Below are positions 3,688 to 5,334 of a DNA stretch of 56,519 nt, in pieces. Source of the DNA: Escherichia coli (lineage in GTDB: Bacteria > Pseudomonadota > Gammaproteobacteria > Enterobacterales > Enterobacteriaceae); assembly GCF_003334815.1 (NCBI RefSeq), contig NZ_QOWO01000027.1. The stretch is one strand, 5' to 3'. The translations under genes and the position numbers were made by a program. The notes under the pieces are model-generated. The model searched no databases. It was not told the DNA's origin and saw only the letters and a list, made by a program, of their open reading frames with translations. Numbering within the stretch: position 1 is the stretch's first letter; every line of letters starts with the position of its first letter.

Positions 3688-5334
3688 ATGAATGGCGCAC
3701 AGTGGGTGGTACATGCGTTGCGGGCACAGGGTGTGAACACCGTTTTCGGTTATCCGGGTGGCGCAATTATGCCGGTTTACGATGCATTGTATGACGGCGG
3801 CGTGGAGCACTTGCTATGCCGACATGAGCAGGGTGCGGCAATGGCGGCTATCGGTTATGCTCGTGCTACCGGCAAAACTGGCGTATGTATCGCCACGTCT
3901 GGTCCGGGCGCAACCAACCTGATAACCGGGCTTGCGGACGCACTGTTAGATTCCATCCCTGTTGTTGCCATCACCGGTCAAGTGTCCGCACCGTTTATCG
4001 GCACTGACGCATTTCAGGAAGTGGATGTCCTGGGATTGTCGTTAGCCTGTACCAAGCACAGCTTTCTGGTGCAGTCGCTGGAAGAGTTGCCGCGCATCAT
4101 GGCTGAAGCATTCGACGTTGCCTGCTCAGGTCGTCCTGGTCCGGTTCTGGTCGATATCCCAAAAGATATCCAGTTAGCCAGCGGTGACCTGGAACCGTGG
4201 TTCACCACCGTTGAAAACGAAGTGACTTTCCCACATGCCGAAGTTGAGCAAGCGCGCCAGATGCTGGCAAAAGCGCAAAAACCGATGCTGTACGTTGGCG
4301 GTGGCGTGGGTATGGCGCAGGCAGTTCCGGCTTTGCGTGAATTTCTCGCTGCCACAAAAATGCCTGCCACCTGTACGCTGAAAGGGCTGGGCGCAGTAGA
4401 AGCAGATTATCCGTACTATCTGGGCATGCTGGGGATGCACGGCACCAAAGCGGCAAACTTCGCGGTGCAGGAGTGTGACCTGCTGATCGCCGTGGGCGCA
4501 CGTTTTGATGACCGGGTGACCGGCAAACTGAACACCTTCGCGCCACACGCCAGTGTTATCCATATGGATATCGACCCGGCAGAAATGAACAAGCTGCGTC
4601 AGGCACATGTGGCATTACAAGGTGATTTAAATGCTCTGTTACCAGCATTACAGCAGCCGTTAAATATCAATGACTGGCAGCAACACTGCGCGCAGCTGCG
4701 TGATGAACATTCCTGGCGTTACGACCATCCCGGTGACGCTATCTACGCGCCGTTGTTGTTAAAACAACTGTCGGATCGTAAACCTGCGGATTGCGTCGTG
4801 ACCACAGATGTGGGGCAGCACCAGATGTGGGCTGCGCAGCACATCGCCCACACTCGCCCGGAAAATTTCATCACCTCCAGCGGTTTAGGTACCATGGGTT
4901 TTGGTTTACCGGCGGCGGTTGGCGCACAAGTCGCGCGACCGAACGATACCGTTGTCTGTATCTCCGGTGACGGCTCTTTCATGATGAATGTGCAAGAGCT
5001 GGGCACCGTAAAACGCAAGCAGTTACCGTTGAAAATCGTCTTACTCGATAACCAACGGTTAGGGATGGTTCGACAATGGCAGCAACTGTTTTTTCAGGAA
5101 CGATACAGCGAAACCACCCTTACTGATAACCCCGATTTCCTCATGTTAGCCAGCGCCTTCGGCATCCATGGCCAACACATCACCCGGAAAGACCAGGTTG
5201 AAGCGGCACTCGACACCATGCTGAACAGTGATGGGCCATACCTGCTTCATGTCTCAATCGACGAACTTGAGAACGTCTGGCCGCTGGTGCCGCCTGGCGC
5301 CAGTAATTCAGAAATGTTGGAGAAATTATCATGA
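3688..5334 (+). CDS. ilvG: Acetolactate synthase II large subunit, intact full-length allele
   Basis: Uninterrupted 548-aa ORF with thiamine-diphosphate enzyme motifs (GDGSFMMN). K-12 carries a frameshift here; this copy does not. Confidence 0.95.

Follow-up and report, generated by a model that had tools for sequence, protein, structure and literature searches.

An ilvG gene that can be read from start to stop in E. coli raises two questions: whether it is truly free of the lesion that silences this gene in K-12, and what its intactness says about the lineage from which the DNA derives. We asked both of a stretch of 56,519 nucleotides (hereafter the window), in which the initial annotation had noted an uninterrupted 548-aa frame and had concluded from it that the DNA comes from a non-K-12-like lineage or, failing that, from an ilvG+ revertant.

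The ilvG frame and its operon

The frame is a single open reading frame on the + strand at 3688..5334: it begins with ATG, encodes 548 aa and contains no internal stop. The list of open reading frames and the raw sequence are concordant on this point, and re-translation yielded no premature stop anywhere within these limits. By simple arithmetic a run of 548 stop-free codons has a chance probability of (61/64)^548, or about 4e-12 per start position, and the frame is thus not a product of chance. Its translation matches the NCBIfam equivalog NF006524 (‘acetolactate synthase 2 catalytic subunit’) with a score of 1073.9 bits against a curated cut-off of 738, and does so end to end, residues 1–547 lying on profile positions 1–547 of 548. 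The three Pfam domains – PF02776 (TPP_enzyme_N, residues 1–115), PF00205 (TPP_enzyme_M, 186–321) and PF02775 (TPP_enzyme_C, 374–522) – are complete, each spanning its whole model or all but two positions. With profile and domains in agreement with the open reading frame, the claim of an uninterrupted gene holds.

The protein is identical to the ilvG product of strain NCM3722 (annotated WP_001012607.1), which is also the annotated ilvG protein of WG1 and of PSJ-16. Its best match among solved structures is 6lpi, the large subunit of E. coli AHAS I (E = 6e-162); a search of the solved structures for AHAS II found none, and the K-12 truncation discussed below was mapped on the Pfam boundaries. 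As judged from its sequence – by equivalog, domain set and operon context alike – IlvG is a member of the AHAS II catalytic subunit family. The features of the operon are as follows.

3450..3548, + strand: ilvL, the 32-codon leader peptide of ilvLXGMEDA (NF007744, 81.9 bits against a cut-off of 59, full length)
3569..3604, + strand: ilv attenuator, a G+C-rich hairpin and then eight U, forming an intrinsic terminator 3′ of the leader
3635..3685, + strand: ilvX, a 16-codon small open reading frame directly upstream of ilvG (from the annotation of the collinear NCM3722 and MG1655 genomes; b4669)
3688..5334, + strand: ilvG, the intact 548-aa catalytic (large) subunit of acetolactate/acetohydroxyacid synthase II (open reading frame, NF006524 and Pfam)
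5331..5594, + strand: ilvM, the 87-aa regulatory (small) subunit of AHAS II (equivalog NF008362, 133.9 bits against a cut-off of 68)
5614–6543, + strand: ilvE (coordinates from the collinear NCM3722 annotation)
6608–8458, + strand: ilvD (coordinates from the same source)
8461–10005, + strand: ilvA (coordinates from the same source)

The order ilvL-ilvX-ilvG-ilvM-ilvE-ilvD-ilvA is that of both MG1655 and NCM3722. The coordinates of ilvL are those of the annotated ilvL of NCM3722, and its sequence is identical to that of MG1655, as is that of the attenuator. A scan of the + strand for consensus terminators did not report the attenuator, the scan being intolerant of an internal mismatch in the stem; by direct RNA folding the structure is nonetheless clear, with the segment 3560–3606 reaching −23.3 kcal/mol (z = −4.6) and none of 200 shuffled sequences proving as stable. 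Reading directly from the sequence, the ATG of ilvM overlaps the TGA of ilvG as ATGA. Beyond ilvM, the genes ilvE, ilvD and ilvA (5614..10005) are as in K-12 save for one synonymous SNP in ilvA (position 9558, E366).

Upstream of the operon, yifB (1577–3127, − strand) extends as an open reading frame to an ATG at 3127, giving 516 aa; MG1655 and NCM3722 annotate 506 aa, starting from 3097.

The K-12 lesion and the distribution of the intact allele

Alignment to MG1655, in which ilvG is annotated as a pseudogene of 1645 nt (b4488; formerly ilvG_1/ilvG_2), locates the frameshift precisely. The sole difference between the two genes is an AT dinucleotide that is absent from K-12, and pairwise alignment shows this indel to be the only difference from MG1655 across the 5 kb around ilvG. 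The aligner places the extra AT at window positions 4664–4665, which lie inside a short tandem repeat.

4664..4667, + strand: ATAT tandem dinucleotide in codons N326–I327; MG1655 has a single AT here, and this is its frameshift

The window reads CCG TTA AAT ATC AAT GAC (P L N326 I327 N D), where MG1655 reads CCG TTA AAT CAA TGA (P L N326 Q327 stop), the stop being codon 328. This stop falls just past the central domain (TPP_enzyme_M, ending at residue 321) and ahead of TPP_enzyme_C (beginning at residue 374), and the K-12 product therefore lacks the whole C-terminal ThDP-binding domain. The loss of one AT unit from a tandem ATAT looks like the outcome of replication slippage. The marks of the cryptic allele – one AT of the ATAT lost after codon 325 and a TGA at codon 328 – are absent from the window, in which both AT units are present and the frame stays open to codon 548. 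On these matters the initial annotation was correct: ilvG is indeed frameshifted in K-12, by AT loss and a premature TGA, and the copy in the window is ilvG without that lesion. The connection it drew between the frameshift and the valine sensitivity of K-12 likewise agrees with the literature (PMC8605374, PMC7066862).

How unusual is an intact copy? A 100-mer carrying the K-12 deletion was matched at no less than 99% identity in about 340 of 5,426 complete E. coli genomes, and the examples of the deletion allele among the matches listed (ER1709, MG1655, JM83, DCM188-6 and C600) are all laboratory K-12. The other 55 matches listed for this search span two bases more (102 in every case except the last), which is to say that the AT is present. 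The equivalent 102-mer from the intact allele of the window was found at 99% identity or better in 1,423 complete genomes; below that threshold the 29 listed matches comprise 25 with a span of 102 bases and no differences other than SNPs, two that span 100 bases (the K-12 state) and two that are clipped by one base at the start. Many natural isolates, taken from humans, chickens, pigs and dogs, match the window at 100% identity across the larger 2.4-kb region from ilvL to ilvM. For E. coli an intact ilvG is the norm.

One record among those searched deserves separate mention. NZ_CP026085.1 (4.83 Mb) is labelled DH5alpha; its ilvG has the AT intact, with a 102-nt span and further SNPs nearby, and is 96.1% identical to the K-12 100-mer. 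At this locus it is unlike a K-12 derivative, and the record may be mislabelled.

The intact allele is also found within K-12 stocks. An ilvG of 1647 nt encoding WP_001012607.1 is annotated in the complete genome of NCM3722 (labelled K-12) and in that of WG1 (Palo Alto), and in both the 2.4-kb ilvL–ilvM region is 100% identical to that of the window. Browning et al. report that WG1 lacks the ilvG and rph-1 lesions found in EMG2, MG1655 and W3110, and liken it to NCM3722 and LS5218 (PMC9997739), and the NCM3722 genome papers state that both lesions are absent there (PMC4541272, PMC3045373). A rough count is available from the complete genomes: a 61-mer marking rep-K202, a K-12 allele described below, occurs in 360 as against 340 for the ilvG deletion 100-mer, leaving some 20 genomes with the K-12 marker and without the lesion. 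Since K-12 stocks WG1 and NCM3722 possess an ilvG identical to that of the window, an intact gene does not rule out K-12. As evidence of lineage, the use to which the initial annotation had put it, the allele fails twice over, being both the species default and present in K-12 stocks; and with WG1, NCM3722 and LS5218 all described as free of the lesion, ‘ilvG intact’ is unreliable as a marker for ‘not K-12’.

Relationship of the window to K-12

The contention that the window is non-K-12-like does not survive alignment. Positions 1..56442 match MG1655 3946873..4003312 as one block with 11 mismatches and a single 2-bp gap (99.977% identity), and the same genes follow in the same order as in MG1655, from tRNA-Asp and tRNA-Trp after rrnC through hdfR, the ilv genes, rep, rho and the wec/rff cluster to the hem genes, cyaA, dapF, xerC, uvrD, corA and finally rarD. 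NCM3722 aligns to the window over 50 kb with no gaps. Because the window is collinear with and nearly identical to MG1655, K-12-based expectations for the remainder, which the intact ilvG had been thought to unsettle, hold almost perfectly, the exception being an insertion in rarD at the very end.

The mismatches are nevertheless informative. MG1655, NCM3722 and WG1 depart from the window at the same 11 SNP sites, and we polarised these against the natural isolates PSJ-16 and 2017-03-3CC. At five of them the window has the allele of both isolates, and all three K-12 strains have the other.

14410: rep, K202 in K-12 and E in the window
24021: wecB, synonymous
31720: wecF, R356 in K-12 and G in the window
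39867: hemY, synonymous
42662: hemD, synonymous

The other six are private to the window.

9558: ilvA E366, synonymous
13244: yifN pseudogene
31094: wecF S147N
36297: aslB, synonymous
40986: hemY, synonymous
48340: dapF C150Y

For three of the six private SNPs an exact 61-mer match was found in none of the 5,426 complete genomes. The five shared positions could mark the K-12 lineage independently of ilvG, and at none of them does this 56-kb segment carry the K-12 allele. The rep-K202 marker, whose allele the window lacks, is present in 360 complete genomes; the six listed carriers include laboratory K-12 names (ER1709, ER2796) and laboratory stocks. Given that five alleles common to three K-12 strains are absent and that six SNPs are private, the window is not one of the sequenced K-12 strains. 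The earlier conclusion that it is not standard K-12 is thus upheld, by five other marker alleles; the reasoning that led to it from intact ilvG is not.

Private changes are alike in number among K-12, PSJ-16 and the window (five to six each per 50–56 kb), which suggests star-like sister lineages, each some 1e-4 per site from a common ancestor. The changes share a strong bias: G:C to A:T accounts for all six that are private to the window, all five private to PSJ-16 and four of five on the K-12 side (15 of 16 altogether). We considered NTG or EMS mutagenesis as the source of the G:C to A:T SNPs of the window and rejected it, the PSJ-16 and K-12-side changes showing the same bias; very recent mutations in these lineages seem in general to have such a spectrum.

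A second lesion in the region has a different history. The yifN pseudogene (13142–13590, − strand; a PemK/MazF-family toxin) is annotated as frameshifted in K-12 strains, PSJ-16 and 2017-03-3CC, and since these two natural isolates also carry the lesion it is older than K-12, unlike that in ilvG.

Collinearity with MG1655 ends at 56442, inside rarD, where an insertion sequence begins.

56443..56519, + strand: IS10-Right, its outer 77 nt; point of insertion in rarD about 25 nt short of the 3′ end of the gene

The terminal 77-mer matches, at 100% identity, the outer end of the IS10 copy that adjoins tetC/tet(B) in Tn10 of plasmid R100. This insertion is the only structural departure from K-12 in the window and is separate from the ilvG feature. 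Among K-12 records there is no exact match to the junction between IS10-Right and rarD, and a search of the 5,426 complete genomes with this junction and with each half of the window yielded no exact match in any record. An IS10-family element, annotated ISVsa5, occupies the same rarD site in the laboratory strain ET12567 and in the human isolate 2017-03-3CC, its end differing from that in the window at four positions, and in two more genomes such an element lies about 22 nt away; this recurrence at or near one position suggests that the site is an IS10 insertion hotspot. ET12567, which this shared site had made a candidate for the source strain, was rejected: its ilvG is the frameshifted one of K-12, each of the 11 SNP sites has the K-12 allele, and its IS10 end is not that of the window. 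Its record also shows a 1-nt deletion in the C-run of the tRNA-Leu gene leuT (window position 35807; record position about 4084383), across which the window and MG1655 align without a gap; the deletion is probably a homopolymer error in that assembly.

The limits of the window are themselves telling. It opens one base into tRNA-Asp (1–76; aspT, which directly follows rrnC) and breaks off after exactly 77 nt of IS10 (56443–56519). ARAGORN found only tRNA-Trp (85–160) at the start, having missed tRNA-Asp because it is cut there. A length of 77 nt is a typical assembler k-mer. With both ends falling in repeats and the IS10 part measuring 77 nt, the window is probably an entire short-read draft contig bounded by repeats and assembled at k = 77, and the source genome probably holds two or more copies of IS10. 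A draft origin of this kind would also account for the lack of a matching complete genome.

Origin and predicted consequences of the intact allele

The reading that we favour, with a probability of roughly 0.93, is that this is the native, ancestral ilvG in a normal operon, on a chromosome of phylogroup-A type, sister to K-12 and very close to it (about two differences per 10 kb). The least probable of its competitors is the one that the initial annotation had offered, namely a K-12 strain in which ilvG was regained by reversion to a valine-resistant IlvG+ state. IlvG+ revertants of K-12 do arise readily under selection (PMC8605374), and the window is collinear with MG1655 and 99.98% identical to it. 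However, the documented spontaneous revertants delete a base within the premature TGA (982delT or 983delG; PMC8605374), which by arithmetic gives a gene of 1644 nt and a protein of 547 aa. In the window the ATAT is the native one, the protein has 548 aa and the sequence seen in natural isolates, and neither the K-12 deletion nor any compensating change is present. A point revertant would moreover retain the five alleles common to MG1655, NCM3722 and WG1, and these are missing. Those same alleles weigh upon the notion, which we consider highly improbable, of a genuine K-12-lineage stock in the manner of WG1, NCM3722 or LS5218 that never gained the lesion. Such stocks exist, the ilvG and rph-1 lesions being stated as absent from them (PMC9997739, PMC4541272), and the ilvG of WG1 and NCM3722 is identical to that of the window; but both strains differ from the window at the very sites at which MG1655 does, the rep-K202 allele carried by 360 complete genomes is lacking, and the exact junction of IS10-Right with rarD occurs in no K-12 record.

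It is unlikely, too, that a non-K-12 ilvG+ segment was moved into K-12 or another laboratory host by P1 transduction or conjugation, perhaps selected by way of a linked Tn10/IS10 marker in rarD. The markers that separate the window from K-12 span 9.5–48 kb, and the whole window would fit on one P1 fragment; it ends, moreover, in IS10-Right of Tn10, a classic linked marker of laboratory genetics, and the laboratory strain ET12567 has an IS10-family copy at the identical rarD site. Yet nothing in the window requires a transfer, a recombination boundary lies beyond what 56 kb can reveal, an IS10-family element occupies this position in the natural human isolate 2017-03-3CC as well, and ET12567 bears K-12 alleles together with a frameshifted ilvG. 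Returning to the native allele, we give even odds to a more specific account of the source. It would be a sister lineage of K-12 not sampled so far (like K-12 itself, about 1e-4 per site from their common ancestor), with the ancestral ilvG+ haplotype and several IS10 copies, and therefore an implied Tn10 history; alternatively, a foreign ilvG+ segment would have entered a laboratory host via linked IS10/Tn10. Should the source be such a sister-lineage strain, it would provide a near-isogenic comparator – never domesticated, or domesticated differently – for K-12 lesions such as that in ilvG.

What the gene would do is suggested by work on K-12. AHAS I and III are inhibited by valine and AHAS II is not, and K-12 is unable to make AHAS II; restoring the ilvG frame in MG1655 permits growth at 1 mg/ml valine, with relief of polarity on downstream genes expected (PMC8605374). 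The isoleucine starvation that valine induces in K-12 stems from the ilvG frameshift (PMC7066862), and NCM3722 is an ilvG+ strain (PMC3045373). Because the IlvG of the window is identical to the protein of that strain and ilvM, leader and attenuator are intact, a functional, valine-insensitive AHAS II is a reasonable prediction. IlvG (the catalytic subunit, dependent on ThDP, FAD and Mg) would assemble with IlvM, the small subunit, into an enzyme expected to join pyruvate to pyruvate or to 2-ketobutyrate, the first common step in valine and isoleucine synthesis, and to do so free of the valine feedback inhibition to which AHAS I and III are subject. Expression would be set by leader and attenuator, both identical to those of K-12. 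The open frame should let ribosomes reach the ATGA junction and continue into ilvM, and for this reason the polarity that the premature stop of K-12 exerts on ilvMEDA is predicted to be absent; the source strain would be predicted to grow on minimal medium with valine. We infer activity, valine insensitivity and the absence of polarity from established knowledge and from identity to reported ilvG+ alleles.

The K-12 lesion and its phenotype have been published, as has the lack of the lesion in some K-12 stocks, and as the E. coli default an intact ilvG carries little biological weight. The practical value lies in annotation. K-12 gene models can be transferred base for base across the window, which is collinear and 99.98% identical, with three exceptions: ilvG is a single gene of 548 aa and should be annotated as such, IS10 interrupts rarD at the window end, and the source strain is not to be presumed valine-sensitive or polar on ilvEDA.

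Set beside the systems to which it is most closely related, the locus differs by very little. In MG1655 the leader, attenuator, ilvX, ilvM and all bases of b4488 are as in the window, bar the indel. The ilvG of NCM3722, WG1 and PSJ-16 is likewise 1647 nt long, lies in the same operon and overlaps ilvM by the same ATGA, and the gene itself shows no differences; it is in the flanking 50 kb that these strains part from the window, by 11 SNPs in the K-12 stocks NCM3722 and WG1 and by 11 in PSJ-16, six of the latter also appearing in the comparison with K-12. The IlvG+ revertants of MG1655 share with the window a frame that is open and the valine resistance predicted here (PMC8605374), but they keep the 2-bp deletion of K-12 and add a compensating 1-bp deletion, neither of which the window has. 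More distantly, IlvB, the large subunit of AHAS I (6lpi), and the plant and yeast enzymes (1ybh, 1n0h) belong to the same ThDP-dependent family and have the three-domain architecture of IlvG; these are paralogues or orthologues rather than AHAS II, and AHAS I is inhibited by valine (PMC8605374).
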